Positions 5,177 to 24,762 are shown, numbered from the stretch's first letter. The stretch is DNA of 64,000 nucleotides from a bacterium (GCA_016125045.1 WGML01000009.1:117206-181205); one strand, 5' to 3'. Notes: generated from the letters alone by a model not told the origin. A program made the numbers and translations.

Positions 5177-6453
5177 CGGCGACCTTCGCCACCAGCCGCA
5201 AGGCGAGACTTTCCGGGCTCTTCCTCCTCTATGCGGCCCAGGGCGCTCCCGAGGGGCTTCTCTATGTGGCCGTGCCCGCCTGGCTCGGTGCGAACGGGGT
5301 CCCGGCCGAGGCGGTCGCGGGATACATCGCCGTCATCCTGCTGCCGTGGAGCCTGAAACTCTTCAACGGTGTGCTCATGGACCGCATCACCTTCCTTCCC
5401 ATGGGACGCCGCCGGCCATGGCTGATCGGCGCTCAAACCGTTCTTGTGCTGACCCTGCTGGGTTTTGGCGCCCGCGCGCCCGAGGGCGCGGACCTCGCCT
5501 GGATCACGGCCGCGGGCTTCCTCGTGAATCTCTCGGCGGCATTCCAGGACGTCGCCATCGACGGCATGGCGATCGACACCGTCCCCGAAGACGAGCGCGC
5601 CCGTGCGAACGGCGTAATGTGGGGCGGCAAGACGCTGGGGATCGGCGGCGCGTCCGTCGCGACGGGATACATCATCGCGGCTGAGGGTTTCGCCGCGGCC
5701 GCCCTCGCGACGGCGGCGTTTGTCGCCCTTGTGATGCTCGTCCCGCTCCTGTGGCGCGAACGACCCGGCGAGCGGCTGTTGCCGTGGTCGGCCGGAGAAG
5801 CTTCGACTGAGGCCCGCACCCGCCAGCTGACGAGCTGGGCGCCCATCCTGCGCGACCTGATCGCCGCCCTGATCCGTCCGCAGAGCATGCTGCTGGCGCT
5901 TGGGATATTTGTCGCGCTCATCGGTTACGGCCTCGACACCGCGTTCGGACCGCTTCTCGCGGTGCAGGACCTCGAATGGGAGCAGGAACGCTATGGCGCG
6001 CTGGCCGGCGCATCAAACCTCGCGGGCGGACTGTTCGGCGTATTCGCTGCGGGCGTCATCGCGGATCGACTGGGTCCGGGGCGTGCGCTCATCATCACGC
6101 TCGTCGGCGTCGCGTTGCTGCAAGGAGGAATGGGGGCGACCTCGCACCTGTGGAGCGCCCCTTGGGTCTTTTCGGGATACACAATCCTCTACTCGCTTCT
6201 GTTCGTTATGATGTCGGTGTGCATCTACGCCCAGGCGATGGCGGCGAGCGCGCCATCGGTCGCCGCGACCCAGTTCTCCGTCTTCATGGCGATCCTCAAC
6301 CTCGGAACGTCCTTCGGGGCGGGCCGACTGGACGTGATCAAGCCCGCCTTCGGATATGAAGGCGCCTTCCTGGCCGCCGCCGCTGCGGCGCTTGCTGGAG
6401 CGGTCCTGTTTGCGCTGTCCAGCCGGCTGTCGGCGCGCGCCCCTGCGCGATGA
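5173..6453 (+). CDS. MFS transporter (AmpG/PAT-like)
   Basis: About 12 hydrophobic segments. The TTG start overlaps the upstream stop (cTTGAcg). GLFLLYAAQGAPEGLLYVAVPAWL resembles AmpG-family proteins. Confidence 0.8.
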   Translation: MTATFATSRKARLSGLFLLYAAQGAPEGLLYVAVPAWLGANGVPAEAVAGYIAVILLPWSLKLFNGVLMDRITFLPMGRRRPWLIGAQTVLVLTLLGFGARAPEGADLAWITAAGFLVNLSAAFQDVAIDGMAIDTVPEDERARANGVMWGGKTLGIGGASVATGYIIAAEGFAAAALATAAFVALVMLVPLLWRERPGERLLPWSAGEASTEARTRQLTSWAPILRDLIAALIRPQSMLLALGIFVALIGYGLDTAFGPLLAVQDLEWEQERYGALAGASNLAGGLFGVFAAGVIADRLGPGRALIITLVGVALLQGGMGATSHLWSAPWVFSGYTILYSLLFVMMSVCIYAQAMAASAPSVAATQFSVFMAILNLGTSFGAGRLDVIKPAFGYEGAFLAAAAAALAGAVLFALSSRLSARAPAR

Positions 6454-6824
6454 AAGGCCGCAAGGAGCACCGGCCCGATCCCGTGCGATCTCCGCTCACG
6501 GTATGGGTGCACAGAGGGGTTGATGCGCCCGCCTACCGCGCCACGATCTTCGATCCGCCGCTCCCCGGCCCTGCCCCTTCGCGCGGCTGGCCGATCTGGA
6601 TCGTCGAACACCGCGGACGCGAACTGGTGTTCGCCTCACCAGAGGAGATTCGCCACGCCATCGATGTTCTTGGACGCCGCGTGATGCCCCGTGCGCGCGA
6701 TCTTGCCGGCCCTCACCTCCCGCGCAACCGACACTGGCTGTCCCGGCTGCACTCGAGCTGGAAGTCCTGGAAGGTTCGCCAACGCCTCACGAAAACGCTC
6801 GCGCGGCTCCTGACCGAAGGCTGA
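6450..6824 (+). CDS. Hypothetical protein
   Basis: ATGA start/stop overlap with the MFS gene. Coding-like third-position GC. No recognised domain. Confidence 0.45.
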   Translation: MKGRKEHRPDPVRSPLTVWVHRGVDAPAYRATIFDPPLPGPAPSRGWPIWIVEHRGRELVFASPEEIRHAIDVLGRRVMPRARDLAGPHLPRNRHWLSRLHSSWKSWKVRQRLTKTLARLLTEG

Positions 6825-6858
6825 TCAACCGCACGGACCAATGGGTTGCGGCGACCGC

Positions 6859-7953
6859 TCAGCGGCCCTCTTCCGCCGTCACCGAGGCCACGACACCGCC
6901 ACGTTTCTCCTGCATCCGCGCGCCAGCGAGAATGCCCTCGAAAGAGTAATTCCCTTCGTGGCAGGCGTACTCATAGAGCGGCTGATCGGTCTTGTTGAAC
7001 GCCATCTCTCCCCGCCATGTCTGGGTGTACAGGGTCGGATCCTCGACGATGAATTCATAGACGATCTGGTCGTCCGACCAGCGTGTGAATCTCTCGGTCA
7101 CCTTGCCCTCGGACGAAATATAGCCCCGCTGCATGGGGTGCATGTTTCGCGTCTCGATGACCAGCGTGTCGCCCTCATACCAGCCGATGGAGTCTCCGAG
7201 CCACGGCTTGATAACGTCCGGCCGGACCCGCTCGCGGGTGATGGGAATGATCCGCGCATCGTGCACCATTTCAACCAAAATCATAACGTGATCAGGGGCT
7301 TGCACGATCTGATAGGTGTTGTTGTAGAGCACGTTCTGCATCACCGGACCGCCGGTGTTGCCAAACCCGATCAGGCAGCGCTCGCCGATCGGGCGGGTTT
7401 CCGGCCCATCGAAACTCCCGTAATTCGTCTGGATCGGTCCCGGCCCCTGCACCGTCACGCCATCCGCGCCGGCGCCGCCGGTCGGGCGGGCGGGTTGGGC
7501 GGCGGGGCGACGCGGCTGGGGCCGGTTCTTGTACGGAATGCGTCCATCCGCGGGCTCGACAATCCACGATGAGCGAAGCTCGCCGCGCACCTTCGCAACC
7601 TTGGTTCCCGGGTCGACCCAGAACGCGTTATAGCCGCCGCCGGACAGGAGGTCCGTGCCGTCGAGCAGCGTCGTGTCTTTCGGATCCGCCGGCTTTGCGT
7701 CCTCGCGTGTCCGGTTGTTGTAATAGTCCGCGCCTTCAAGCTTCGCCGCCTGCTCGGGGGTGAGGACGAGCGTCTCGGCGAGGGGATCGCGCTGCATGTC
7801 CGTGATCGAGGAATTGCTCCAGAACCCCTGCAGGTCCGGGCGTCCGTCGGGCATGCGGGCCGGCGTGTAGCCCGGCGCCGTGGTCTGCGCGGCGGCGGAG
7901 GCGGCCAGTGCGCAACTGAAGGTCAGGGCTGAAACGATCGACTTGATGAACAT
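6859..7953 (-). CDS. Secreted protein of unknown function, paralogue 1 of 4 (ERCLIGFG / YEYACHEGNY family)
   Basis: The ATG at 7953 follows an AGAGGGA Shine-Dalgarno site. Signal peptide MFIKSIVSALTFSCALAASAAAQ. Long conserved blocks are shared with 12060, 13291 and 14642. Confidence 0.85.
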   Translation of the reverse strand: MFIKSIVSALTFSCALAASAAAQTTAPGYTPARMPDGRPDLQGFWSNSSITDMQRDPLAETLVLTPEQAAKLEGADYYNNRTREDAKPADPKDTTLLDGTDLLSGGGYNAFWVDPGTKVAKVRGELRSSWIVEPADGRIPYKNRPQPRRPAAQPARPTGGAGADGVTVQGPGPIQTNYGSFDGPETRPIGERCLIGFGNTGGPVMQNVLYNNTYQIVQAPDHVMILVEMVHDARIIPITRERVRPDVIKPWLGDSIGWYEGDTLVIETRNMHPMQRGYISSEGKVTERFTRWSDDQIVYEFIVEDPTLYTQTWRGEMAFNKTDQPLYEYACHEGNYSFEGILAGARMQEKRGGVVASVTAEEGR

Positions 7954-8272
7954 GGCGTGCTCCCTCTTTGGTCGCGGACAGGCGCGCGTCTTGTCCGGCG
8001 CGCCTCGCCGCATGGAATCTGCGCCAACATGCGGTAAAACGTCTCTGCGATGCAATCGGACAAACCGGACCGGCGGAGCTTGCGTACGTTTTTTGCATTC
8101 CGAAGCCGTATATTCGCCCTCCGGATCGCTTGCCGGCCGTCCATGCGACAGCGTGCATGACCGGGGGGTGAGGAGTGGGCGTCAGGAACGGTTTCGGCGC
8201 GGGTTTGAGTGATGTTTGGGCGATGGCTTCATCACGGGGCCGCCGCCGGGGACCAGACGAAGGGACGACAAG

Positions 8273-9967
8273 ATGGACGGATCGATGGCGGCTGGCCCGG
8301 TGCTCTCTGATCTGCGCGGCCTGATGCGCGAAGGCGCGACGGCGGCGGAGACCTATTTCCTCGCGGTCCGCAAGGCCGTCGCCGGCAAGGTCGCGCCCGC
8401 CGGCAAGGTCGACCGCACGCTCATCGACGTCGAACAACGCGCCACCCACGGCCTCGCCTGGGTGCTGACCTATGTCGAAACGCTGAAAGAGGTCGCCAAC
8501 TGGGCGGACCGTCTCGCCGCAGCCGGCAAGTGGGGCGAAACGGAACAGCTGCTCTCCCAGATCCTCTTCGGCGAATACCTGAACCAGCTCGCCGGCGGCC
8601 TGCCGATGACCCAGGTCGAGATCGTGCGCCCGCTCGACATGACGGCGGAAGCATCGATCACCGCGCCGTTGCTCGCGCCCGCCGTGACGACCCTCATGAC
8701 TGGCGGAAACACCCCCGCGGCCCGGCTGCGGGCGGCGGAACTGATCCGCGAAGCGCAGGGCCGGGCGACGGTCGAGAACACCGGGCTCGACGAAACCTAT
8801 GAAATGATCCGCGACCAGTTCCGCCGCTTCGGCGAGGAGCGCGTCGTTCCTTACGCTCATGACTGGCATCTGAAGGATGAACTCATCCCCGACGCCGTCG
8901 TCAACGAAATGGGCGAGATGGGTGTCTTCGGCCTCACCATCCCTGAAGCCTATGGCGGGCTCGGCATGGGCAAGACCGCGATGTGCGTCGTCTCGGAGGA
9001 GCTGTCGCGCGCCTATATCGGCGTCGGCTCGCTCGGCACGCGCTCCGAGATCGCCGCCGAACTCGTCCTCGTCGGCGGAACCGAGGCGCAGAAGCAGGCA
9101 TGGCTGCCCGGCATCGCTTCCGGAGCCATCCTGCCCACCGCCGTTTTCACCGAACCCAACACCGGATCGGACCTCGGTTCGCTCCGCACCCGCGCCGAGC
9201 GCGCGCCGGACGGCGGCTGGACCATCACCGGGAACAAGACCTGGATCACCCACGCGGCCCGCACCGACATGATGACCGTGCTCGCCCGCTCGGTCGCCGG
9301 CACCGACAATTTCTCCGGCCTGTCGATGTTCCTGTGCAGGAAACCGCGTGGGACGGATGAGGCTCCCTTCCCCGCCGAGGGAATGACCGGCGGCGAGATC
9401 GAGGTGCTCGGCTATCGCGGCATGAAGGAATACGAGATTGCCTTCGACGGCTTCCGCGCGCCGGCCGACGCCCTGCTCGGCGAGGTCGAGGGACAGGGCT
9501 TCCGCCACCTGATGGCGACGTTCGAGGGCGCCCGCATCCAGACCGCCGCACGCGCCATCGGGGTCGCGCAGAACGCGCTTGAACTCGGGCTCAAATATGC
9601 GCTGGAGCGCAGCCAGTTCGGCCGCCCGATCTTTGAATTCCCGCGCGTGTCCGACAAGCTCGTGATGATGGCCGCCGAACTCATCGGCGTGCGCCAGCTC
9701 ACCTATTACTCCGCGCGCCAGAAGGATGAGGGCAAGCGCTGCGATCTTGAGGCCGGCCTCGCCAAGATGCTCGCGGCGCGCGTCGCCTGGGGCGCGGCGG
9801 ACAATGCGCTGCAGATCCACGGCGGCAATGGCTTCGCGCTCGAATATCCGATCAGCCGGGTGCTGTGCGATGCGCGCATCCTCAACATCTTCGAGGGCGC
9901 GGGCGAGGTGCAGGCCATGGTCATCGCCCGCCGCACGCTGGACGAATTCCTCGCCGGGAAGAACTGA
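8273..9967 (+). CDS. Acyl-CoA dehydrogenase with an N-terminal extension
   Basis: The ACAD core motifs are all present: TEPNTGSDLGSLRTRAE, WITHA, and IHGGNGFALEYPISRVLCDARILNIFEGAGEVQ. Alternative start at 8216. Confidence 0.9.
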   Translation: MDGSMAAGPVLSDLRGLMREGATAAETYFLAVRKAVAGKVAPAGKVDRTLIDVEQRATHGLAWVLTYVETLKEVANWADRLAAAGKWGETEQLLSQILFGEYLNQLAGGLPMTQVEIVRPLDMTAEASITAPLLAPAVTTLMTGGNTPAARLRAAELIREAQGRATVENTGLDETYEMIRDQFRRFGEERVVPYAHDWHLKDELIPDAVVNEMGEMGVFGLTIPEAYGGLGMGKTAMCVVSEELSRAYIGVGSLGTRSEIAAELVLVGGTEAQKQAWLPGIASGAILPTAVFTEPNTGSDLGSLRTRAERAPDGGWTITGNKTWITHAARTDMMTVLARSVAGTDNFSGLSMFLCRKPRGTDEAPFPAEGMTGGEIEVLGYRGMKEYEIAFDGFRAPADALLGEVEGQGFRHLMATFEGARIQTAARAIGVAQNALELGLKYALERSQFGRPIFEFPRVSDKLVMMAAELIGVRQLTYYSARQKDEGKRCDLEAGLAKMLAARVAWGAADNALQIHGGNGFALEYPISRVLCDARILNIFEGAGEVQAMVIARRTLDEFLAGKN

Positions 9968-9985
9968 CGTTCGGTTGTTCCTCAC

Positions 9986-10006
9986 GGGAAACCGTCTAGG
10001 TTTCCC
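9986..10006 (+). terminator. Possible terminator hairpin after the acyl-CoA dehydrogenase gene
   Basis: gggaaacc-gtcta-ggtttccc forms an 8-bp perfect stem. There is no clear U-tract. Confidence 0.35.
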
Positions 10007-10056
10007 CTTCGCGCCTCCAAACCGGAAAGGGGCGTTAATGCGGGGAGCAGCGAGCG

Positions 10057-10695
10057 ATGGCCTATCCGCCAGACTGGCGCCGAGTTTCGGACCCGTCCGC
10101 CGCGACGGAGCTGATGCGCCACCACCCCTTCGCTCACCTCGCGACGGCGCATTCGGGACTGCGGAGCACGCGGATTCCCTTCATCGCCGATGTTGAGGAT
10201 GGCAAGCCGGTGCGCCTCCGCGCGCATCTCAACGCACAGAACCCGCAGGTCGATGGCCTTGATGGACAGGACGCCCTCGTCACGTTCGCCGGGCGCGCCA
10301 CCTATGTCTCACCGAACTGGCGCACCGATCTCGCGCGCGCGGCCACCTATGACTACGAGGAGGTGCAGGTGCGCGGCGTCATTCGCGTGGTTCGCGACAT
10401 CGACTTCTTTCGTCAGCTCATCGACGATCTCTCGGCGATGATCGAGCCGCAATACGCCGACGTGGGGGACTATCCGGTTTGGAACACTTCGATGACGCCG
10501 CCGGGATATGTCGAACGCCTGTTTCCCGCCATCACTGCTTTTGAGGTGGTGATCCAGTCGGTCGAGATGATCTCCAAACTCCACCAGCACTTCCCGGAAG
10601 CCGACCGGCGGAGCATCGCAGACCACCTCGCACGGTCGGGTCGGGAGGACGCCCGCGCCATCGCCGACAAGATTCGCCGCCAGATCGGCGACTGA
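10057..10695 (+). CDS. FMN-binding negative transcriptional regulator (PaiB family)
   Basis: The length and the N-terminal HPFAHLAT...IPF pattern are typical of PaiB-like proteins. Confidence 0.75.
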   Translation: MAYPPDWRRVSDPSAATELMRHHPFAHLATAHSGLRSTRIPFIADVEDGKPVRLRAHLNAQNPQVDGLDGQDALVTFAGRATYVSPNWRTDLARAATYDYEEVQVRGVIRVVRDIDFFRQLIDDLSAMIEPQYADVGDYPVWNTSMTPPGYVERLFPAITAFEVVIQSVEMISKLHQHFPEADRRSIADHLARSGREDARAIADKIRRQIGD

Positions 10696-10796
10696 TCGCT
10701 CTGGCGTTCCGGCGCGGGGCGCATCTATCATCGCATCGACCAAGGTCGCGGCGTCGACGCCGCGACCGCCACTGACGCCCTCAAGGAGCCCCGCCC

Positions 10797-12035
10797 ATGC
10801 CCGAAGCCTGGATCATCGACGCCTGCCGCACCCCGCGCGGCATCGGCAAGGTCGGCAAGGGATCGCTCGCCGGCATCCATCCGCAACAGCTCGCGGCGAC
10901 CGTGCTGAAGGCCATCGCCGACCGCAACGAACTGAAGACCGCGGAGGTCGACGACATCATCTGGGGCACCTCCACCCAGAAGGGCAAGCAGGGCGCGGAC
11001 CTCGGACGCATGGCCGCGCTCGACGCCGGCTATGACGTGCGCGCCAGCGGCGTGACGCTCGACCGGTTCTGCGGCTCCGGCATCACCACCGTGAACATGG
11101 CCGCAGCGCAGATCATGTCCGGCATGGAGGATCTCGTGATCGCCGGCGGCACCGAGATGATGAGCTACACCGCCTCCATCGCGAGCCCGACCGAGCCGCC
11201 GATGATCGACGCCGGCAATCTGCGTCTGCGCGCCCGCCACCCGCAATCGCACCAGGGCGTGTGCGCGGACGCCATCGCGACGCTGGAGGGCATTTCCCGG
11301 GAGGCGGCGGACGATCTCGCCCTCGTCAGCCAGCAGCGCGCAGACGCGGCGATCCGCGGCGGCCATTTCGACCGCAGCCTCGTTGCGGTCCACCACGAGG
11401 ACGGATCGGTGGCGCTCGACCGCGAGGAATTCCCGCGTCCGCAGACCACGCGCGAAGGCCTCGCGGGCCTCAAGGCGTCGTTCGCGCAGATGGCGGACAT
11501 TCCGCTCGATGAGAAGGGCACGACCTATGGCGGCCTCATCCGTCAGGTCTACCCGGAGCTTGAGATCAACCACATCCACCATGCGGGGAACTCCTCCGGT
11601 GTGGTTGACGGGGCGGCGGCCGTCCTGCTCGCCTCGCCGGACTATGCGCGCAAGAACGGGCTGAAGCCGCGGGCGCGCATCGTCGCGACGGCCAATGTCG
11701 GCGACAGCCCGACGCTGATGCTGAATGCACCCGTGCCCGCCGCCCGCAAGGTGCTGGAAAAGGCCGGCCTCACCCTCGACGACATCGACCTGTTCGAGAT
11801 CAACGAGGCGTTCGCCGTGGTCGCCGAGAAGTTCATCCGCGACCTGAAACTCGACCGCGACAAGGTGAATGTGAACGGCGGAGCGATGGCGCTCGGCCAC
11901 CCGATCGGGGCGACGGGCTCGATCCTCATCGGCACGATCCTCGACGAGCTTGAGCGGCGCGACCTGAAGCGCGGCCTCGTCACGATGTGCGCGGCCGGCG
12001 GCATGGCCCCCGCGATCATTATCGAACGGGTGTGA
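10797..12035 (+). CDS. Acetyl-CoA C-acyltransferase (thiolase)
   Basis: RFCGSG active-site Cys context, NEAFA, and the C-terminal GGAMALGHPIGATG ... CAAGGMA motif. Confidence 0.92.
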   Translation: MPEAWIIDACRTPRGIGKVGKGSLAGIHPQQLAATVLKAIADRNELKTAEVDDIIWGTSTQKGKQGADLGRMAALDAGYDVRASGVTLDRFCGSGITTVNMAAAQIMSGMEDLVIAGGTEMMSYTASIASPTEPPMIDAGNLRLRARHPQSHQGVCADAIATLEGISREAADDLALVSQQRADAAIRGGHFDRSLVAVHHEDGSVALDREEFPRPQTTREGLAGLKASFAQMADIPLDEKGTTYGGLIRQVYPELEINHIHHAGNSSGVVDGAAAVLLASPDYARKNGLKPRARIVATANVGDSPTLMLNAPVPAARKVLEKAGLTLDDIDLFEINEAFAVVAEKFIRDLKLDRDKVNVNGGAMALGHPIGATGSILIGTILDELERRDLKRGLVTMCAAGGMAPAIIIERV

Positions 12036-12059
12036 GGGAACGAAGGGGCCCCGCGCCAG

Positions 12060-13118
12060 TTACTTCGCCGCGGCGGCTTTCGCCTCCTGGACGCGGGCGC
12101 CGCCGAGAATGCCCGGCATAGCGTAATTGCCCTCATGGCAGGCGTATTCATAAACCGGGCCCTCGGTCTTGTAGAAGCTGAGCTCGGCCTTCCACGGCTT
12201 GGAATAGTAATTCGGGTCCTCCACCTCGAACTGGTAGAAGATTTCATCCGCGCTGATGCGGGTGAAGCGCTCTTTCATCTTGCCCTCCGGCGAGAGCGGG
12301 ATCGACGAGGCGCTCGCCTGCTCGGGACGGACATTCTTGGTCTGGACGACGAGCGTGTCGCCCTCCCACCAGCCGACGCTGTCGCCAAGCCAGCGCGCCA
12401 TGACGCCCGGACGGTGTTTCTGCGTCGCCTCCGCCTCGCTCTTGAACAGCGGAACCACGCGCGCGTCGTGGTTCATCTCAACCAGCACCATGAGGTGATC
12501 GGGCGTCAGCACGAACTGGTAGGTGTTGTTGTACAGCACGCTCAGCATGCCCGGCCCGCCGGTGTTGCCGAAGCCGATCAGGCAGCGCTCCGGCAGGGGC
12601 GGCGCCTCCGGGCCTTCATTGCCGCCGACGCCGGTGACGTAGCGGATGCCGCCCGCCGTGCGGGCGCGCTGAACGGCGGCCGGGTCGCGCCATGGGATCG
12701 CGCCGCTCGGCGGATCGACGATGTAGGAGGTGCGGATCTCGCCCTTCACCTTGGCGAGCTGCTGGCCGGGATCGACCCAGAACGCGTCGTAGCCCTTGAG
12801 GCCGAAATCCTGGCTGCCCTTCGGCGGAGCCGGCGCATTCGGATCGGAGAAGGTGGGGTCGCCGGCGTCTTCCCGGCTGACGCCGGCGATCGACATGTTC
12901 TCCGCGATCTTCTGCGCCTCCTCGGGCGTGACGACCAGCTTGTCCACACCAGCCGGGCGGCTGAGGCCGGTGAGCGATCGGTTGGTCCAGATTCCGTTGA
13001 GATCGGGCTTGCCGGACGGCGTCACCGGCAGGTCCTCGGCGAACGCTGCGGGCGAAACGGCCAGCATCAGGGCGGCGACGGCCGAGCTGACCATGGGTGC
13101 GAAGCGATGCGCGGACAT
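12060..13118 (-). CDS. Secreted protein of unknown function, paralogue 2 of 4
   Basis: The ATG at 13118 follows an AAGGAGAG Shine-Dalgarno site. Signal peptide ...AALMLAVSPAAFA-E. Carries the ERCLIGFGNTGGPGM...YEYACHEGNYAMPGILGGARVQE blocks. Confidence 0.85.
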   Translation of the reverse strand: MSAHRFAPMVSSAVAALMLAVSPAAFAEDLPVTPSGKPDLNGIWTNRSLTGLSRPAGVDKLVVTPEEAQKIAENMSIAGVSREDAGDPTFSDPNAPAPPKGSQDFGLKGYDAFWVDPGQQLAKVKGEIRTSYIVDPPSGAIPWRDPAAVQRARTAGGIRYVTGVGGNEGPEAPPLPERCLIGFGNTGGPGMLSVLYNNTYQFVLTPDHLMVLVEMNHDARVVPLFKSEAEATQKHRPGVMARWLGDSVGWWEGDTLVVQTKNVRPEQASASSIPLSPEGKMKERFTRISADEIFYQFEVEDPNYYSKPWKAELSFYKTEGPVYEYACHEGNYAMPGILGGARVQEAKAAAAK

Positions 13119-13242
13119 TCTGGCTCTCCTTTCAGGTGCGGATATCGGTTTCGGGCGAATTCCCTGCATGACGCAACAAGGTCCACGACGCGGCGCGCCA
13201 TGGCAACACAAGGTGGTTCAAAACCGCGTGGGCGGAGGGGCC

Positions 13243-13281
13243 AGACCCTCGCCCCGGACCCTCGCCCCAGACCCTCACCCC
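13243..13281 (-). repeat. 13-nt tandem repeat, three copies (G-tract-rich on the minus strand)
   Basis: agaccctcgcccc / ggaccctcgcccc / agaccctcacccc. The repeat lies between the paralogue-3 stop and the paralogue-2 start. Confidence 0.8.
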
Positions 13282-13290
13282 GGCGATCGA

Positions 13291-14385
13291 CTAGCGCGCG
13301 CGCCCGGCATTCGCCGCCGCGGCTTCCTGAATCCGCGCGCCGCCCAGAATCCCCGGCATGGCGTAGTTGCCCTCATGGCAGGCGTATTCAAAGACATCCT
13401 CATCGGAGTCGTAGAAGCTGAGTTCGGCGGTCCACGGCCGGGTGTAGATAGTCGGATCCTCCACCGTGAAGGTGTAGAAGATCTCATGGTCGGAATAGCG
13501 GGTCAGCCGTTCCGTCACCTTGCCGCGCGGCGACAGCGGGATCGCACTCGCCCGCGCCTGCTCGGGGCGGACATTGATCGTCTCGATCACCAGCGTCGAT
13601 CCCTCATACCAGCCGACGGAATCACCAAGCCATGGCGTCATCACGTCCGGGCGGTGGTTGCGTCGCGCCTCCTCGGCCGAGGCGAAGGTCGGGATGATGC
13701 GCGCGTCGTGCACCATCTCGACGAGGATCATCACATGATCCGGTGCCTGAACGATGCGATGGGTGTTGTTGTAGAGCGTCGACAACATGCCGGGTCCGCC
13801 CGTATTCCCAAAACCGATGAGACACCGCTCGGCGAGACCGGTGGCCTCCGGGCCTTCATTCCCGCCGATCCCCGTCGCATACCGCGTCGCGCCGATCTGA
13901 CGCTGCCGCGCGATGCCCGCCGGATCGACGAACGGCACCTGCCCGTTCGGCGGATCGACGATGTAGGACGACCTGATCTCGCCCTTCACGAGCGCAAGTC
14001 GTTCACCCGGCGCGACCCAGAACTGGTCATAGGCCTTCACCCCGAAATCCGCGGCGCCGGCCTCCGGCGCCGGCGCGTCGGGATCGGAAATCGGCGGCGC
14101 GGGCCCGCCCTCGGCCGCGAACGCGCCGGCAATGGTCATCCGGCTGACGATGGCCTGCGCCTCGGCCTCGTCGACCACAAGTTTGGAGACGCCCGGCGGG
14201 CGGGTGAGGCCGGTGAGCGATGCGTTCGTCCACACCCCATTGAGATCGGTCGGAACGCCCGCCGAAGCATTCGTCCCGGACGCCGCCTCCGGCGCCCCTT
14301 GCGCCATGCAGGCCCCGGCCCCGAACACCATCAACGCCGCCACGGCCGCCACACCGCCCAATCCAGGCCGCCCGCCAAACCTCAT
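13291..14385 (-). CDS. Secreted protein of unknown function, paralogue 3 of 4
   Basis: The ATG at 14385 follows a GGAGGG Shine-Dalgarno site. Signal peptide MRFGGRPGLGGVAAVAALMVFGAGACMAQG. Most similar to paralogue 2, so this looks like a tandem duplication. Confidence 0.85.
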   Translation of the reverse strand: MRFGGRPGLGGVAAVAALMVFGAGACMAQGAPEAASGTNASAGVPTDLNGVWTNASLTGLTRPPGVSKLVVDEAEAQAIVSRMTIAGAFAAEGGPAPPISDPDAPAPEAGAADFGVKAYDQFWVAPGERLALVKGEIRSSYIVDPPNGQVPFVDPAGIARQRQIGATRYATGIGGNEGPEATGLAERCLIGFGNTGGPGMLSTLYNNTHRIVQAPDHVMILVEMVHDARIIPTFASAEEARRNHRPDVMTPWLGDSVGWYEGSTLVIETINVRPEQARASAIPLSPRGKVTERLTRYSDHEIFYTFTVEDPTIYTRPWTAELSFYDSDEDVFEYACHEGNYAMPGILGGARIQEAAAANAGRAR

Positions 14386-14641
14386 GGTTCCGCCCTCCAG
14401 TCGCCAAGCCCGCTTCCGGGTCTGCGTGGAGACTAGCGCGACAGGCCGCCGCAGCAAGTGCAATCCATCTCCGGCGAGCGACGGTATTGCGGTCGTCCGC
14501 CCGTTAGTTCCCGTGATTGTGTTCGGCGACTTCGCCCGGATGGTTGGATTCACCCGCCGAAGCGATTGCCTGACGCATGCGTAAATGGTTTCAATCGAAT
14601 CTGCGGCCGCAATCTGACGGTCGCCCAAAACGGAGGCAGAT

Positions 14642-15706
14642 TTGCGTCGTTCCCTCATGCTCGCCCTCGGTGCGGCTCTTGTCGCCGCTCCGGTCCTGAC
14701 ATCAGGCCAGACGGCCGCTTTCGGCCAGTCCGCCGAAGCCTACAAGGCGCCCCGCACGTCGTTCGGCCAGCCCGACATCATGGGCTACTGGACCAACAAC
14801 ACCCTCACCCCGCTCACCCGCCGCGCCAATGTGCGCGACCGGCTCGCCTACACCGAGGAGGAGGTGAAGAAGCTCGAAGGGGACGTTCTCATCGAGGTCG
14901 AGGAGGGCAACGCCCCGACCGACCCGGACGCCCCGGCTGACTTCCGCCAGGAGTCGACCGTCGTTCGCCCCGAATTCCAGGCGGCGGGCGGCGAAGTCGG
15001 CGGCTACAACCGGTTCTGGCTCGACCCCGGCAACCGCGTCATGCGCGTGAATGGCGAACCGCGGACCTCCCTGCTCACCACCGCCAATGGCCAGTTCCCG
15101 CAGCGCAAGCCCGACGCGACGCCGCCGCCCCGTTCGCCCCGTCCCGCGGGCGGACCGCTCGGCTCGTTCGACAGCTACGAGACCCGCTCGCTGGGTGAAC
15201 GCTGCGTCATCGGCTTCGGCCGGAATGGCGGCCCGCCGATGTTCCCGAACGGGTTCTACAACAACAACTACCACATCGTTCAGTCGCCCGACGCCGTGAT
15301 GATCGAAGTCGAGATGAACCACGACGCCCGGATCATCCGGCTCAACGCGCAGCACCGTCCCGGCGATGTGCGCCCCTATTTCGGCGACTCGATCGGCCGC
15401 TGGGAGGGCGAAACCCTCGTCATCGAGACGATCAACCTGCCGGAGTCGCAGCAGATCGCGGGCTCCTGGAAGGACCTCAAGGTCACCGAGCGGCTGACCC
15501 GCGTCGGCGAGAACCGTCTGCACTACGCTTTCACGATCGAGGACCCGACCCTCTGGGCCGAGCCCTTCGGCGGGGAGTATGAATTCTCGCCGCTGGACGG
15601 GCAGATCTATGAGTACGCCTGCCATGAGGGCAACTACGCCCTGCCAGGCATCCTGATCGGCGCGCGGGTCGAGGAAGGCGCCAAGCCGACCGGTTCGTCG
15701 CACTGA
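14642..15706 (+). CDS. Secreted protein of unknown function, paralogue 4 of 4
   Basis: The TTG at 14642 lies 5 nt after GGAGG; an alternative ATG is at 14657. Signal peptide LMLALGAALVAAPVLTSG. Carries ERCVIGFG...YEYACHEGNYALPGILIGARVEE. Confidence 0.8.
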   Translation: MRRSLMLALGAALVAAPVLTSGQTAAFGQSAEAYKAPRTSFGQPDIMGYWTNNTLTPLTRRANVRDRLAYTEEEVKKLEGDVLIEVEEGNAPTDPDAPADFRQESTVVRPEFQAAGGEVGGYNRFWLDPGNRVMRVNGEPRTSLLTTANGQFPQRKPDATPPPRSPRPAGGPLGSFDSYETRSLGERCVIGFGRNGGPPMFPNGFYNNNYHIVQSPDAVMIEVEMNHDARIIRLNAQHRPGDVRPYFGDSIGRWEGETLVIETINLPESQQIAGSWKDLKVTERLTRVGENRLHYAFTIEDPTLWAEPFGGEYEFSPLDGQIYEYACHEGNYALPGILIGARVEEGAKPTGSSH

Positions 15707-15915: not shown

Positions 15916-16191
15916 ATGAAGGGACTTGCACTGATCGCTCTCGCTGTCGCGGCGTCCGCGTGTGCGTCTCCGGCGACCGTGACAAAAACCAGGACGACGC
16001 TCGGCGAAGTAGACCTCACCGGCCTCGAATGCCGGCGCGAAACCGACGCCGGCAGCATCCGCGCCCGCACGATCTGCGCCGCTCCGGCGGACTGGGCGGC
16101 TTTTGAAGCCAGGTCGATCGAACGCACGCAGCGCCAGCTCGACGAAGCGGATCGCTACACCAACGTCTTCCAGTTCGGCCGCGGCCCCTGA
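15916..16191 (+). CDS. Small lipoprotein; paralogue of 2878..3135
   Basis: Lipobox MKGLALIALAVAASAC. Motif GLECRRETDAGSIRARTICAAPADWAAF. Confidence 0.6.
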   Translation: MKGLALIALAVAASACASPATVTKTRTTLGEVDLTGLECRRETDAGSIRARTICAAPADWAAFEARSIERTQRQLDEADRYTNVFQFGRGP

Positions 16192-16297
16192 TCCGGAGCA
16201 TTTGGGTCGGCGGTCAACTCCCCCCTTGCCGACCCGCGTCGCTTGCGCGCAAGCTGACAGCATGGCCGCCGACAAAAGCGGCAAGGGGAGGTTCGTC

Positions 16298-17182
16298 ATG
16301 ACCAGAAACAGAGATCATCGGCGCGGCGCGATCACGCGAACACTTCTGCTCTCAGGCGTCGCGGCGGTGCTGGCCGCCGCATGCGCAGCTTCGCCCGACC
16401 CGGACGTGGGGGCCGCCGCGCCACCCGCTCCGGCCGCCGTCGTCGCCGCGACCGCGCCTCCCGTCGCGGTGAGGCCGCCGACCGTGTCGCCTATTTCCGC
16501 CGCGGCGTATGAGACGCTGCTCGCGCACCCATCAAGGCCCGCAGCCGACCGCGCCGACGATCCCGCGCGCAAGCCCGCCGACGTGCTGGCCTTCGCCTCC
16601 ATCAGGCCGGGCGACACAGTGCTTGAGATGGAGGCCGGCCGGGGCTGGTATTCGGAAATCCTGTCGCGCGCGCTCGGCCCCGAGGGCAAGCTCATCGTCC
16701 AGTATCCGCCGGAATTCGCCTATGGCGGCCCGGCGTTCAAGGAGCGCACCGACGCCGGCGGCCTCAAGAATGCGCGCATCACCATCACGCATTTCGACAA
16801 GCTCGACGCGCCGGACGCATCGGTCGACCGGGTGTTGTGGATTCTGGGGCCGCACGAAATCTACTACACACCCAAGGACTCGGCTGGTCTCGGAACCGAG
16901 GCGGGAACCTACGCCGAGATCATGCGCGTTCTCAAACCGGGCGGGCAGTTCATCGCGATGGATCATGCCGCCAACGCCGGCGCCCCGTCGAGCACCGGCC
17001 AGACGATCCACCGCGTGGATCCCGCCATTGTCATCGCGGCGGCGGAACGCGCAGGACTGAAACTCACCGGCAAGAGCGACGTCCTCGCCAATCCGGACGA
17101 CGACCGGACGCTCATGGTGTTCAACCCCACCGTGCGCCGGCACACCGACCAGTTCCTGCTGCGCTTCATGAAACCCGCGTAA
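16298..17182 (+). CDS. Exported class I SAM-dependent methyltransferase-like protein (COG4798-like)
   Basis: The ATG at 16298 follows an AAGGGGAG Shine-Dalgarno site. Lipobox LLLSGVAAVLAAAC. The DTVLEMEAGRGWY segment matches the methyltransferase motif I region, followed by LKPGGQFIAMDH. Confidence 0.75.
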   Translation: MTRNRDHRRGAITRTLLLSGVAAVLAAACAASPDPDVGAAAPPAPAAVVAATAPPVAVRPPTVSPISAAAYETLLAHPSRPAADRADDPARKPADVLAFASIRPGDTVLEMEAGRGWYSEILSRALGPEGKLIVQYPPEFAYGGPAFKERTDAGGLKNARITITHFDKLDAPDASVDRVLWILGPHEIYYTPKDSAGLGTEAGTYAEIMRVLKPGGQFIAMDHAANAGAPSSTGQTIHRVDPAIVIAAAERAGLKLTGKSDVLANPDDDRTLMVFNPTVRRHTDQFLLRFMKPA

Positions 17183-17267
17183 CGAAGCACACCAAACTCG
17201 GCCCCGGCCTTTCGCTTCACGGCCTCGTGCGTTAACCATGGCGGTCAAAAGCTCTGGAGGGGCCGAC

Positions 17268-18092
17268 ATGACCATGACCAGCCTACGCGTCGTCTTGTTC
17301 GCGGGAGTATCCGCGTTCGCCGCAGCCGCCTGCCAGCCGGCCGCCGAAGCGCCGGCGCCAGCCGTTGAAACCGCGGCCGCCCCCGCGCCGGCCCCGGCGC
17401 CATTCGATTACGCCGCCCTCCTCTCCGCGCCGACCCGCCCGGCCGCCGACGCTGCGGACGACGCCGCGCGCAAGCCCGCCGAATTGCTCGCCTTCGCAGG
17501 GGTTCAGCCGGGCCACACCGTCGTCGAGATCGAGGCAGGAGCGGGTTATTTCACCGAACTCCTGTCCGGCGTCGTCGGGCCGACGGGCAAGGTGATCATG
17601 CAGAACCCGCCGGAGTTCGACGCTTTCGCCGGAGAAGCCGTCGCCGCCCGGCTCGCCGACAACCGGCTTGGCAATGTCGTCCTGTCGAAGACGCATTTCG
17701 ACGTCATCGAGGCGCCGGACGCCTCCGTCGATGTGGTGACCTGGATGCTCGGGCCGCACGAGCTGTTCTTCAAGCCGGAGGGCGTTGAGTCGCTCGGTGA
17801 TCCGACACGGTCGTATGCGGAGATCTTCCGGGTGCTGAAGCCGGGCGGGAGTTTCGTCGTGCTCGACCATGCCGCGGCCGCCGGCGCGCCGCCGGAGACC
17901 GGCAACACGCTGCACCGGATCGACCCCGCGCTCGTCGAGCAGGCGGCGGCCGCGGCCGGGTTCACGACCGCCGAGTCGAGCCCGCTGCTCGCCAACCCGG
18001 CCGATGACCACACCCTCGGCGTGTTCGATCCCGCCATCCGGCGCAAGACCGACCAGTTCCTGATCAAGTTCGTGAAACCGGCGGCCGCCTGA
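17268..18092 (+). CDS. Exported class I SAM-dependent methyltransferase-like protein; tandem paralogue
   Basis: Lipobox VLFAGVSAFAAAAC. HTVVEIEAGAGYF ... LKPGGSFVVLDH. Colinear with the 16298 ORF. Confidence 0.75.
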   Translation: MTMTSLRVVLFAGVSAFAAAACQPAAEAPAPAVETAAAPAPAPAPFDYAALLSAPTRPAADAADDAARKPAELLAFAGVQPGHTVVEIEAGAGYFTELLSGVVGPTGKVIMQNPPEFDAFAGEAVAARLADNRLGNVVLSKTHFDVIEAPDASVDVVTWMLGPHELFFKPEGVESLGDPTRSYAEIFRVLKPGGSFVVLDHAAAAGAPPETGNTLHRIDPALVEQAAAAAGFTTAESSPLLANPADDHTLGVFDPAIRRKTDQFLIKFVKPAAA

Positions 18093-18880: not shown

Positions 18881-19417
18881 ATGTCAACACCGCGCCGATC
18901 TCCTTCGGTCTACCTGATCGTGGCCCTCGCCTGCACGATCGCGACCGCCTGTTCGCAGGGCGAACAAGGCGTCGTCGCCGGTCCTGAGGGCAATCCGGTG
19001 ATCTCGCTCTCGGAGGGTGCGTGCATGGGCACCTGTCCGGTTTATGACATGACGCTGCGGCCCGACGGCGCTTTCATTCTCCATGGCCAGCGGTTCGTGC
19101 GGTCGACCGGCGTGAGCGAAGGCGCGCTCGGCCCGGACGCCTGGAGCGAGGCGGAAGCGGTTCTCGTCCGCGCGGACTTCTGGAAGATGCGCAAGACACA
19201 GACCCCGGAGACGCTTCCCAACTGCGTCACCGATGCGCCAACCGCGCTGATCACCTGGCGCACGCCCGAGGGCAAGGAAAAGACCGTCACCTATGACGCC
19301 GGGTGCGACATGCCGAAAACGCGCCAGATGGTCGCCGATCTGCGCAGGGCGCTCGGGTTCGACACCCTCGTGTGGACCGACGAGCGGTTCGTGCCGCCGG
19401 CGCCCGACTCCCGCTAG
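18881..19417 (+). CDS. Lipoprotein (resembles DUF6438; CxGxCPVY motif)
   Basis: Lipobox LIVALACTIATAC. Motif EGACMGTCPVYDMTLRPDGAF. Confidence 0.6.
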   Translation: MSTPRRSPSVYLIVALACTIATACSQGEQGVVAGPEGNPVISLSEGACMGTCPVYDMTLRPDGAFILHGQRFVRSTGVSEGALGPDAWSEAEAVLVRADFWKMRKTQTPETLPNCVTDAPTALITWRTPEGKEKTVTYDAGCDMPKTRQMVADLRRALGFDTLVWTDERFVPPAPDSR

Positions 19418-19430
19418 GGCGACGCTTCGG

Positions 19431-19898
19431 CTAGCGGTTCTCGTCGAGATATTTGCGCACCCGCTCCAGCACCGGCGTCACCATCTTCACCTCCTCGAGC
19501 GAGATCACCCCGAAGAGACCGGCAAGACCGGGGCCGGTGGCGGCGATGCCGTCATCCTGCGCGCGCCGGCCAGCCGCCGTGATCGAGACCACCTTGCCGC
19601 GGCCATCCAGCGGGTCCGGCTCGATGGTGACAAAGCCCGCGGCTTCAAGCTTCTGCAGCGTGTTGGTCATCGCCCCCTTCGTCACCTGAAAGGCGGCCGC
19701 GAGCGCGCTCGGCGAGTTGGGGTTCTTCACTCGAACAAGATTTCCGAGCACCGAGAACTGCGAGACCGTCAGCCCATGCGGAAGCAGCCGCTCAAGGCGA
19801 TTGGACGAGAGCTGGCTGATGATGCCGATCTCCTTCAACAGGTTGAAGTAGAGCCGGGCCGCATCCATTCGGACATCGGGGGGAAAGTCAGGCTTCAT
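19431..19898 (-). CDS. MarR family transcriptional regulator
   Basis: The winged-HTH core LTVSQFSVLGNLV...SPSALAAAFQVTKGAMTNTLQKLEAAGFVTIEPDPLDGRGKVV is present. The exact start is uncertain. Confidence 0.85.
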   Translation of the reverse strand: MKPDFPPDVRMDAARLYFNLLKEIGIISQLSSNRLERLLPHGLTVSQFSVLGNLVRVKNPNSPSALAAAFQVTKGAMTNTLQKLEAAGFVTIEPDPLDGRGKVVSITAAGRRAQDDGIAATGPGLAGLFGVISLEEVKMVTPVLERVRKYLDENR

Positions 19899-19908
19899 CT
19901 CGGTCCGA

Positions 19909-21051
19909 TCAGGTGATGAGAAGGGATGCAGGGTCGCGGCGCGGGGCGTGCGCCGCCTTGGGAGCAAACCCCACCCGCACCAGCATCTGCACCGTCCCGC
20001 CCTCGCCCAGCAAGTTGTGCGCCTCATCATAGTGGGCCGCCATTTCAGGATATTCCTGCAAGGTCTGGCTCCAGGGATGAACGGCGAGCCCCAGTTCGGC
20101 GATCTTCAGCGTCATTCGCGCATAGGCCCGCCCGGCGGCGATCTGATCGGCGCGCGTGTTGCCGGCGGTCGTCATCCAGGCGAACGCCTGCGCAGAATAG
20201 GCGCGCGCGCGAAACATCTCCATACCCTGCTGAAACGCGCTCGTTGATGGATCAAGCATCGCCTCGGGGGTGACGATCCCGAGGGCCACCATCCCCTCGA
20301 TGAACGGCCCTTCGAGAAACAGGCCGTCGCGGTGCGCGTCGATCTGCCGGCGGCCGATCCGCATGAGATCGACGCTCTCCTTCATGGTCTCATAGGTCAG
20401 GCTCTCGACTTCGTGCCCGGCCCAGGTGAGGTCGCGCAGACGCGCCACCATCGCCGGCTCCGACGATGTGCGCGCGGCGACCGGCCCGACGGTTCCAGCC
20501 TCTGCAATCGCCGCGAGGTCCGCGGCGGCGGGCGTCTTCGCGGTGTAGACCTCGCGATTGGTCAGCCGCTTCAGGACGTGGTCGAAGGCCGGATCGCGCA
20601 CGGCGCCGCCCGAGACGAACCGCACCTGCGCAACGGGCCTTGAGTCGAGCCGAGGCTGCGGCTCACCGTCCGGAAACAGCGAGATGTCGGCTCGATATCC
20701 CTCCGCCGCGGCCGCGATCGACAGGAGTTCGAGAAAGGCTCCGCATCCGATTGTGATCTGCCGGTCGAACGGATCGGTCGCCGGCAAGAGCCGATCCAGG
20801 TCGCAATAGAGGCTGAGCGCATCGTCCCCGTCGAGACGGACCAGCCAGGGCTGGCGATTGTGGGGATTGGGGGCGAGGATCGCGTAGGACAGGAAGCGCT
20901 CGCGCAGTCCCTCGGCCTCGCCCGCCTCCCGCCACGGCGCCCGCGCGAGGGTTGATGGTCGCGTCGAGAGGTAGAAACCACTTGCGCCAGCCGTCGCGGC
21001 CAGCACCACGCCGCCGCCGATCAGGCGAAGAACATTGCGTCTTGAGGTCAT
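19909..21051 (-). CDS. Tat-exported nitroreductase-fold (Acg-like) FMN oxidoreductase
   Basis: The ATG at 21051 gives the Tat signal MTSRRNVLRLIGGGVVLAATAGA. ILAPNPHNRQPW is typical of the nitroreductase fold. Confidence 0.7.
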   Translation of the reverse strand: MTSRRNVLRLIGGGVVLAATAGASGFYLSTRPSTLARAPWREAGEAEGLRERFLSYAILAPNPHNRQPWLVRLDGDDALSLYCDLDRLLPATDPFDRQITIGCGAFLELLSIAAAAEGYRADISLFPDGEPQPRLDSRPVAQVRFVSGGAVRDPAFDHVLKRLTNREVYTAKTPAAADLAAIAEAGTVGPVAARTSSEPAMVARLRDLTWAGHEVESLTYETMKESVDLMRIGRRQIDAHRDGLFLEGPFIEGMVALGIVTPEAMLDPSTSAFQQGMEMFRARAYSAQAFAWMTTAGNTRADQIAAGRAYARMTLKIAELGLAVHPWSQTLQEYPEMAAHYDEAHNLLGEGGTVQMLVRVGFAPKAAHAPRRDPASLLIT

Positions 21052-23771: not shown

Positions 23772-24014
23772 TCCCTGTCAACCGCACGCAGGCGTGGAAG
23801 CGCCCAACCAGACGGCGAACCCCAATGGTCACAATCGCCCGGCGGGACGCAAGATCGCGACACGTCGCCCATCTGGCGCCACGAAACTTGATTTGCGGGG
23901 CGCACCCCCATAACAGAAGTCCAGTCCATGAGTCCGAAGACACGGGCGCGCGACCCCCCGCGCGGCTGCATCGACGGGCGACAAGCTGGTTGCGAACCGA
24001 TTGGAGACGCCGTC

Positions 24015-24761: not shown

Positions 24762-24762
24762 C

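Follow-up and report, generated by a model that had tools for sequence, protein, structure and literature searches.

Four genes interleaved with β-oxidation genes encode predicted periplasmic calycin-type barrels of a large unnamed family

What are the four related proteins whose genes are interleaved with β-oxidation genes in a 64,000-nucleotide stretch of bacterial DNA (GCA_016125045.1, WGML01000009.1:117206-181205; hereafter the window), and does their position say what they do? The genes, which we call p1 to p4, lie between positions 6859 and 15706 (Table 1). A preliminary description, made from the sequence alone, took them for copies of an unassigned secreted protein family that had expanded at this site, and it suggested a periplasmic function linked to the interleaved β-oxidation genes and to the uptake or processing of hydrophobic or acyl substrates. 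The analysis reported here predicts that p1 to p4 are periplasmic calycin-type barrels belonging to a family without a name in the libraries searched.

The reading frames of p1 to p4 contain no internal stops, as judged from the open reading frame (ORF) list and its translations, and tblastn of the four proteins against the whole window recovered exactly these four copies and no fifth. Shine-Dalgarno (SD) sequences, read from the sequence, precede the starts of p1 (GAGGGAG, 6 nt before ATG), p2 (AGGAG, 7 nt before ATG), p3 (GGAGG, 8 nt before ATG), and p4 (GGAGG, 5 nt before TTG). By eye, each N terminus has a short basic n-region, a hydrophobic core, and an AxA-like site, and no canonical lipobox was seen in any of the four. 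The coordinates, SD sites, and signal-peptide-like leaders given in the preliminary description, which had spoken of Sec-type signal peptides, were thus all found. In the NCBI annotation, p2, p3, and p4 are consecutive hypothetical proteins.

Pairwise identities among p1 to p4 are 40 to 63% by tblastn (E values of 1e-57 to 1e-160), far beyond chance, and the proposed paralogy of the four genes is borne out. The closest pair is p2 and p3 (63%), p1 is 43 to 48% identical to p2, p3, and p4, and p4 is the most diverged of the copies. The four-way alignment has 97 invariant columns. These include the two Cys residues noted earlier and two His residues rather than the one that had been counted; one His stands in VEMxHDAR and the other in EYACHEGN. 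Every one of the eight shared motif blocks listed earlier is present, but only four of the eight patterns hold literally in all four copies, the rest matching zero to three copies (small errors of spacing or residue). The 172-bp spacer between p3 and p2 carries a 13-bp tandem repeat, GACCCTCGCCCCG, in 3.1 copies at 13244-13283 (Tandem Repeats Finder score of 66). Scans for promoter and terminator consensus sequences around p1 to p4 gave hits at or below shuffle expectation; the genome is 66% GC.

No match at an E value of ≤1 was obtained for any of the four proteins in Pfam-A (2025; hmmscan) or NCBIfam 20.0, and profile searches of PDB sequences with alignments of 4 and 74 sequences returned nothing meaningful and no FABP. 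The view that the family is unassigned therefore stands for these libraries. Literature searches, including searches on bacterial periplasmic FABP-like proteins, turned up no paper on it. The family is nevertheless very large. Among the 8,000 candidates scored, p2 matched at least 6,546 clusters at 90% identity and p4 at least 6,743; at 50% identity, there were 13,641 representatives with an E value of ≤1e-3, of which 1,178 had an E value of ≤1e-30. One-per-species GTDB genomes yielded at least 593 matches, spread over no fewer than six phyla or classes, and every source name among the family matches was "hypothetical protein." Carriers include SAR86, OM182, Pseudohongiella, Halieaceae, Cellvibrionaceae, Hyphomonadaceae, and Maricaulaceae, as well as Phenylobacterium, Steroidobacter, Acidobacteriota, and Gemmatimonadota. 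Since a hydrophobic N-terminal segment precedes the first conserved motif in 252 of 255 full-length members and only 11 of the 255 have a lipobox-like motif, export as a soluble periplasmic protein appears to be a trait of the whole family.

Related loci also contain a shorter sister protein of ~290 amino acids (aa), and we refer to the p1-to-p4 type as subfamily A and to the shorter type as subfamily B. The A and B profiles are homologous (hhalign probability of 99.6%; E value of 1.2e-23); scans of B against Pfam gave nothing meaningful. Motifs common to the A/B superfamily are an N-terminal (G)KPDLxG(I/V)W, a Cys before the barrel described below, (W/F)xG(D/Q)SxGxWEGDTLVV, ER(F/Y)T, Y-x-(F/A)-x-(V/I)-(E/D)-D-P, and C-x-E after the barrel, to which subfamily A adds ERCxIGFG..GGP, VEMxHDAR, and EYACHEGNY. 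All four window proteins carry ERC..GGP, VEMxHDAR, GDSxG..EG.TLV, ER.TR, EDP, and EYACHEGNY and so belong to subfamily A; the N-terminal superfamily block is substituted in p3 (TDL) and p4 (PDIMG).

The ages of the four copies could be judged from their foreign relatives. The best of these are ~57% identical for p1, 70% for p2, up to 75% for p3, and 73 to 74% for p4, and the p4 ortholog clade, at 63 to 74% identity, spans Phenylobacterium, Hyphomonadaceae, and Gilvimarinus. Proteins of the p2 type and of the p4 type each form a broad ortholog clade, and the two types co-occur in other genomes; two copies lie on one Gilvimarinus contig, and three are found in Proteobacteria bacterium 005FR1. 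Among the best 80 related loci (up to 21 kb each), which also served as our context sample, 11 have two or more family copies inside a 20-kb span, and no fewer than six assemblies are represented by two separate loci each. Because each paralog is closer to foreign orthologs than to the other window paralogs, the duplications are ancient, and the cluster is best described, on sequence comparison, as old lineages lying side by side. A recent tandem expansion was ruled out, the foreign orthologs (57 to 75%) being closer than the window paralogs (40 to 63%), and the suggestion that the four copies represent an expansion of a periplasmic function is misleading.

Structure prediction and a Foldseek comparison, both proposed in the preliminary description, gave a barrel that resembles CRBP and FABP. 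Two AlphaFold2 models were built from different paralogs and different alignments, one of p2 (74 sequences) and one of p4 (138 sequences). The p2 model (predicted local distance difference test [pLDDT] score of 80.3; predicted template modeling [pTM] score of 0.80) has an eight-strand barrel at residues 199 to 317, and the p4 model (pLDDT of 78.8; pTM of 0.76) has the same barrel at residues 209 to 317. In both, eight long antiparallel strands occupy the C-terminal ~120 residues and are preceded by ~160 residues; DSSP assigned the eight long strands together with some short strands near the N terminus, and no helix-turn-helix was obvious. The N-terminal segments GKPDLxGxW...R and Y-x-x-F-W-x-D-P-G...G-E-x-R-S-S...G-x-x-P are modeled at a pLDDT of >90, and the variable Pro/Ala-rich N-terminal loops have low confidence. 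For both models, the top Foldseek matches in the PDB were the intracellular lipid-binding proteins (iLBPs) CRBP, FABP, and CRABP, with best E values of 2.5e-4 (p2) and 3.5e-4 (p4), a probability of ~1.0, target-normalized template modeling (TM) scores of 0.45 to 0.53, and 115 to 135 aligned columns. The resemblance to a calycin/iLBP barrel is thus reproducible but moderate, and it does not by itself prove homology. One part of the suggested link to hydrophobic or acyl substrates is compatible with these models, which resemble a barrel that binds retinol or fatty acids; the other part, the link to the β-oxidation genes, is not supported, for reasons given below.

Conservation was scored over 336 diverse members, and residue numbers refer to p2. 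Nineteen residues are conserved in at least 95% of them: Gly42, Arg54, Arg129, Gly139, Pro142, Arg178, Cys179, Glu214, Arg220, Gly245, Glu283, Tyr295, Asp301, Glu324, Ala326, Cys327, His328, Glu329, and Asn331. His217 is conserved in 91%. Cys179, which belongs to the pre-barrel ERC motif, and Cys327, in the post-barrel ACHE motif, occur together in 322 of the 336 sequences, and 240 of the 336 have exactly two Cys residues; subfamily B keeps both (KCYLPGVPR ... FKCVEF). Most likely, the two form a single disulfide that staples the pre-barrel and post-barrel loops, the two most conserved loops of the protein. Glu214, Arg220, Glu283, Tyr295, and Asp301 are common to A and B; His217, Asp218, His328, and Asn331 are specific to A and replaced in B, and we infer that these A-specific residues constitute the functional site of the A proteins. 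Between the p2 and p4 ortholog groups, 21 positions distinguish the groups and 70 are shared invariants, and the 21 are not obviously concentrated in the barrel strands.

Our preferred reading, which we hold tentatively, is that p1 to p4 are soluble calycin-like barrels of the periplasm, each with a single disulfide, and that they serve as carrier or processing proteins with four ancient specificities, binding a small ligand that is probably amphipathic. They would be ancient paralogs of subfamily A within a very large, unnamed, Sec-exported periplasmic superfamily. The mature protein of ~320 aa would comprise a C-terminal eight-strand antiparallel barrel of the calycin/FABP type, with the ~160 N-terminal residues wrapped around it and one disulfide stapling the ERC and ACHE loops. 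The ligand, a small organic molecule that is probably amphipathic, may be held by the barrel and presented to a conserved polar constellation, putatively at one barrel end, made up of Glu214, His217, Asp218, Arg220, Glu283, Tyr295, Asp301, Glu324, His328, Glu329, and Asn331. On this view the proteins would serve in the periplasm as carriers or as processing factors, with four specificities that separated long ago, one per paralog. We favor this reading because of the predicted export of the proteins, the FABP-like barrel in two models, the long-lived lineages, the lipid- and organic-acid-degrading taxa in which the family occurs, and rare fusions. As to the last, P0186 (767 aa) joins the family domain to an N-terminal DUF3089 alpha/beta-hydrolase domain, and P0204 (714 aa) joins it to squalene-hopene-cyclase-type repeats; both are single examples that could be gene-call fusions, and they give a hint of lipid-like substrates.

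Several observations weigh against such carriers. The structural likeness is limited (TM of ~0.5 and 10 to 19% identity, over the C-terminal third only), and up-and-down barrels of the streptavidin type match as well. The motifs ERCxIGFGxxGGP...YNN and EYACHEGNYxxxGILxGAR are the least confident parts of both models (pLDDT of 48 to 69), and an unmodeled metal, cofactor, or partner may sit at these conserved sites. The conserved N-terminal segments might plug the barrel. Finally, 19 residues conserved at ≥95%, together with only 21 group-specific positions versus 70 shared ones, fit a common chemistry (an enzyme or a cofactor or metal site) better than they fit diversified pockets.

The last point leads to the chief rival, in which subfamily A is a periplasmic enzyme with a catalytic barrel comparable to the lipocalin-fold enzymes, possibly with a metal-dependent site built from His217/Asp218 and His328/Glu329/Asn331 and held by the disulfide, so that the paralogs would perform the same chemistry on different substrates. 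Such an enzyme would account for the near-invariance of Arg54, Arg129, Arg178, Glu214, Arg220, Glu283, Tyr295, Asp301, Glu324, His328, Glu329, and Asn331 in 336 sequences that are otherwise ~40% identical, and for the replacement in B of the residues specific to A. It would also fit the low pLDDT of both models exactly at those motifs, the scarcity of specificity-type differences between ortholog groups, and family neighborhoods that are catabolic islands of many kinds. However, neither sequence nor structure resembles any known enzyme in Pfam, NCBIfam, the PDB, or Foldseek searches, no conserved neighbor gene points to a pathway, and the invariant charged residues may be structural salt bridges, given that five of them (Glu214, Arg220, Glu283, Tyr295, and Asp301) are kept in B too. 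We regard an enzyme as possible, though rather unlikely.

Several known systems invite comparison. The iLBPs are the best consistent Foldseek match of both models (E values of 2.5e-4 to 1e-2), and they share with them a small antiparallel β-barrel of ~120 to 130 residues in which a small-ligand cavity is plausible. However, p1 to p4 have no match to Pfam Lipocalin (PF00061) or FABP at an E value of ≤1, and identity in the structural alignments is 8 to 19%. The iLBPs are cytosolic animal proteins, whereas p1 to p4 have signal-peptide-like leaders and look exported; p1 to p4 are also ~2.5 times longer, carry ~160 additional residues at the N terminus, and have the CHEGN motif and a single conserved pair of Cys residues. 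An iLBP has ten strands and a helix-turn-helix lid between strands A and B; by DSSP, our models show eight clear strands, and no lid was identified in them. The Arg...Arg-x-Tyr carboxylate clamp on the last strands of iLBPs was likewise not identified in p1 to p4, whose last strand has a conserved Glu312.

Gram-negative envelopes contain other exported β-barrels that bind lipids, isoprenoid quinones, or metals, namely the Blc lipocalin, the YceI-like polyisoprenoid-binding proteins, and ZinT/YodA, and YceI is typically encoded beside a membrane cytochrome b561. None of the four window proteins matches the Pfam or NCBIfam models of these barrels (including Lipocalin_2 and YceI) at an E value of ≤1, and none of the barrels is among the top 50 Foldseek matches of either model. 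Blc is, moreover, a lipoprotein, whereas p1 to p4 have no canonical lipobox. Two further candidates were rejected. A c-type heme bound through Cys-His is contradicted by the absence of CxxCH from p1 to p4, which have a lone Cys-His in EYACHEGN and their second Cys ~150 residues upstream in ERC. A solute-binding protein of an ABC or TRAP transporter would be two-lobed alpha/beta and not the predicted β-barrel; no Pfam family of solute-binding proteins was matched, and transporters are not conserved neighbors.

Does the gene neighborhood give a better clue? The preliminary description was right about the genes that p1 to p4 surround, an acyl-CoA dehydrogenase (ACAD), a PaiB-like regulator, and a thiolase, and it proposed that their proximity was functional. 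A reading built on that proximity would make the four genes a lineage-specific expansion whose products take up or process acyl or hydrophobic compounds and so supply the adjacent ACAD and thiolase. The local arrangement in the window, with electron transfer flavoprotein (ETF) genes 8 kb away, and the FABP-like predicted fold are what such a reading would lead one to expect. In addition, a block of genes for enoyl-CoA hydratase (ECH), CoA-transferase, short-chain dehydrogenase/reductase (SDR), thiolase, ACAD, a family protein, and acyl-CoA synthetase, written ECH-CoA-transferase-SDR-thiolase-ACAD-family gene-(acyl-CoA synthetase), is kept in four Pseudomonadales/Pseudohongiella loci, and in one genome only 16 bp separate the family gene from the start of an acyl-CoA synthetase gene downstream of it. 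These are lineage-local arrangements.

For the 80 loci as a whole, all ORFs were clustered, recurrent clusters were annotated, and gene order was mapped. Operonic adjacency was defined as a location on the same strand with a gap of <150 bp, and distance decay was scored in 2-kb bins over the 41 loci with full 10-kb flanks. The sole recurrent operonic partners were DUF6152 (17 cases, downstream) and another family gene (14 cases); ACAD was found in 2. Genes of CoA metabolism (ACAD, thiolase, ECH, acyl-CoA synthetase, and CoA-transferase) showed no distance decay, numbering 9, 3, 9, 7, and 3 in successive bins that held 209, 159, 138, 160, and 125 ORFs. The 150 immediate neighbors belong to 139 different Pfam families, led by DUF6152 (17), AMP-binding (4), beta-lactamase (4), and DUF6644 (3), with at most 2 for each of the rest, ACAD included (2). 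The 25 Pfam families listed for these neighbors include none of TonB receptors; one TonB receptor adjoins a family homolog in Aurantivibrio. Pyrroloquinoline quinone (PQQ) dehydrogenases lie near family genes in 16 of the 80 loci, without tight linkage.

The locus of the closest relative, L004 (Alphaproteobacteria RI_35), keeps three family genes and a methyltransferase-like gene, and no ACAD or thiolase is found within 10 kb of its family genes. Beside them, at 5974-8498, stands a trio of genes for a MarR regulator, a DUF6438 protein, and a 508-aa protein, as at 18.9 to 21.4 kb of the window; this trio is the only local synteny conserved between the two loci. An enrichment of β-oxidation genes was not supported by cluster counts, operonic adjacency, distance decay, or the Pfam census. 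The co-occurrence with ACAD, thiolase, or TonB-receptor genes that the preliminary description proposed to look for is not seen (for TonB receptors, among the 25 families listed), and the β-oxidation neighborhood of the family is not conserved, an outcome that the same description had named as refuting. ACAD-type genes are simply dense in this genome, since the window holds a second ACAD gene 34 kb away as well as the ETF genes. With flat CoA-metabolism counts, two ACAD genes among 150 neighbors, a closest relative that lacks ACAD and thiolase nearby, and paralogs of old divergence, we consider a coupling of p1 to p4 to β-oxidation improbable; their position around the ACAD and thiolase genes is a local accident and not a conserved operon.

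The only conserved genetic partner of the superfamily is DUF6152 (PF19649), in about one-quarter of the loci. In 21 of the 80 loci, its gene directly follows the family gene in the same orientation, the median gap being 13 bp, and the gene order in about one-quarter of the loci is B, A, DUF6152; in several loci, DUF6152 directly follows B and not A. Genes of this module fall off steeply with distance (32, 9, 1, 1, and 0 per 2-kb bin in the 41 loci). A small protein with a C-terminal CxxCH, which weakly matches cytochrome c' (PF01322; E value of 4.6e-4), is often encoded near it, and a PQQ dehydrogenase is often found within a few kilobases. The membrane partner takes one of three forms: two tandem DUF6644 proteins (PF20349), HupE_UreJ_2 with a single-transmembrane protein, or a long multi-transmembrane protein that, by eye only, can be read as PepSY_TM-like. 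The module occurs in Acidobacteriota, Gemmatimonadota, Pseudohongiella and other Gammaproteobacteria, and on one plasmid of Novosphingobium humi. The plasmid came to light in a search of a plasmid collection that gave only a remote subfamily-B-like match and thereby exposed the module in a cultured strain. In 9 of 9 aligned DUF6152 proteins, His-His directly follows an Ala-x-Ala-type cleavage site. A PDB sequence profile search with DUF6152 returned nothing meaningful, and no paper mentioning DUF6152 or DUF6644 was found in the literature searches. The two DUFs are already named by PGAP and Pfam, whereas the A and B barrels have no DUF number in the Pfam version searched.

N-terminal His residues are typical of metal sites (CopC, YcnI, lytic polysaccharide monooxygenases, and HupE), and membrane partners of the DUF6644, HupE_UreJ, and PepSY_TM types are associated with metal transport or reduction. 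By analogy, the composition of the module suggests a periplasmic metal or redox function, and the pairing of YceI with cytochrome b561 recalls that of the B and A genes with DUF6644 membrane proteins. It is conceivable, then, that A works with B, DUF6152, the cytochrome c'-like protein, and a DUF6644, HupE/UreJ-like, or PepSY_TM partner in a metal-handling or redox module, and that the window copies are extra A subunits for a module encoded elsewhere in the genome. The close spacing and steep decay of the DUF6152 genes, the recurrence of the same gene set from Acidobacteriota and Gemmatimonadota to Gammaproteobacteria and the N. humi plasmid, the homology of A and B, the His-His of DUF6152, and the interchange of the membrane partner among types tied to metals would all suit this arrangement. 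However, the 64-kb window contains no DUF6152, DUF6644, cytochrome c'-like, or subfamily B gene, about three-quarters of the 80 loci have A without the module, and B, which DUF6152 directly follows in several loci, may be its true partner. For p1 to p4, we judge this explanation unlikely.

A bolder version, which we offer as a long shot, would make the A and B barrels the subunits that hold the substrate in a new oxidative system of the periplasm. DUF6152 would carry a histidine-brace-type center of copper or another metal, proposed because its mature N terminus is His-His; electrons would reach the center via the cytochrome c'-like protein, and membrane proteins, either CopD-like DUF6644 or HupE-like, would load or serve it, while the barrel delivered hydrophobic substrates (lipids, hydrocarbons, or isoprenoids) and p1 to p4 were four substrate modules. 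If true, this would amount to a widespread, unrecognized periplasmic oxidation of lipids or hydrocarbons in SAR86, OM182, Acidobacteriota, and Gemmatimonadota.

The remaining features of the window are listed in Table 1. Downstream of p4, the preliminary description saw exported methyltransferase-like proteins. Two tandem proteins with lipoprotein-like leaders are indeed encoded there, and they cluster together as paralogs, but only the second has a Pfam methyltransferase match. In 9 of the 80 loci, relatives are encoded no more than 10 kb away from a family gene, and an S-adenosylmethionine-dependent methyltransferase fold in the periplasm would be odd if real. The ACAD ORF between p1 and the PaiB-like gene has ~190 residues before the ACAD N-terminal domain if read from the first TTG, which would mean either a later true start or an additional N-terminal domain. 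In the PQQ dehydrogenase, ~215 N-terminal residues precede the propeller and are probably a membrane anchor.

Table 1. Coordinates of p1 to p4 and other features of the window, and loci of the DUF6152 module in other genomes
Feature	Position	Strand	Remarks
p1	6859..7953	-	Subfamily-A exported barrel protein (predicted), 364 aa; leader ends near ASAAA/Q; divergent from the acyl-CoA dehydrogenase gene
ACAD	8216-9967	+	Acyl-CoA dehydrogenase
PaiB/FMN_bind_2 protein	10057-10695		
Thiolase	10797-12035		
p2	12060..13118	-	Subfamily-A exported barrel protein (predicted), 352 aa; NCBI GC169_12155; downstream partner in tandem pair
p3	13291..14385	-	Subfamily-A exported barrel protein (predicted), 364 aa; NCBI GC169_12160; upstream partner in tandem pair
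p4	14642..15706	+	Subfamily-A exported barrel protein (predicted), 354 aa; TTG start; NCBI GC169_12165; divergent from p3
Protein with lipoprotein-like leader	16103-17182	+	Paralog of the 17238-18092 protein; no Pfam match
Class-I methyltransferase-fold protein	17238-18092	+	Lipoprotein-like leader; UbiE/Methyltransf_11 matches near threshold
DUF6438 protein, MarR regulator, and 508-aa protein (trio)	18881-21435		508-aa protein without Pfam match
ETF genes	23928-25692		8 kb from family cluster
PQQ-dependent dehydrogenase	27478-29976	+	832 aa; 12 kb from family cluster
TIR_2-domain protein	33509-34639	-	
TonB-dependent receptor	46849-48981	+	31 kb from family cluster
Second acyl-CoA dehydrogenase	49097-50284	+	34 kb from family cluster
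Tannase/feruloyl-esterase family protein	56573-58081	+	
DUF6152 module, other genomes			Loci L013, L014, L017, L020, L028, L043, L046, L051, L055-L060, L062, L064, L065, L072, L074-L077
DUF6152 module, L084	24.4-29.7 kb of record		Novosphingobium humi G5 plasmid NZ_CP103870.1; DUF6152 and DUF6644 genes so named by PGAP

Taken alone, the feature in the window is an unremarkable cluster of hypothetical genes, and it carries a lesson for annotation, in that proximity to β-oxidation genes is no basis for naming these proteins. The family behind it is large and ecologically prominent and is tied elsewhere to an equally uncharacterized conserved periplasmic module. At over 13,000 clusters by the 50% identity criterion, it ranks among the larger unnamed protein families; its motif set hardly varies, and it is found in highly abundant marine heterotrophs (SAR86, OM182, and Pseudohongiella) and in major soil phyla. 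The module of B, A, DUF6152, the cytochrome c'-like protein, and DUF6644 or HupE-like proteins is a defined experimental target in cultured strains such as N. humi G5. If p1 to p4 and their relatives are indeed periplasmic carriers of lipids or organic acids, or enzymes acting on them, they would fill a gap in how substrates are moved or modified between the outer and inner membranes of TonB-receptor-rich, lipid-degrading oligotrophs.

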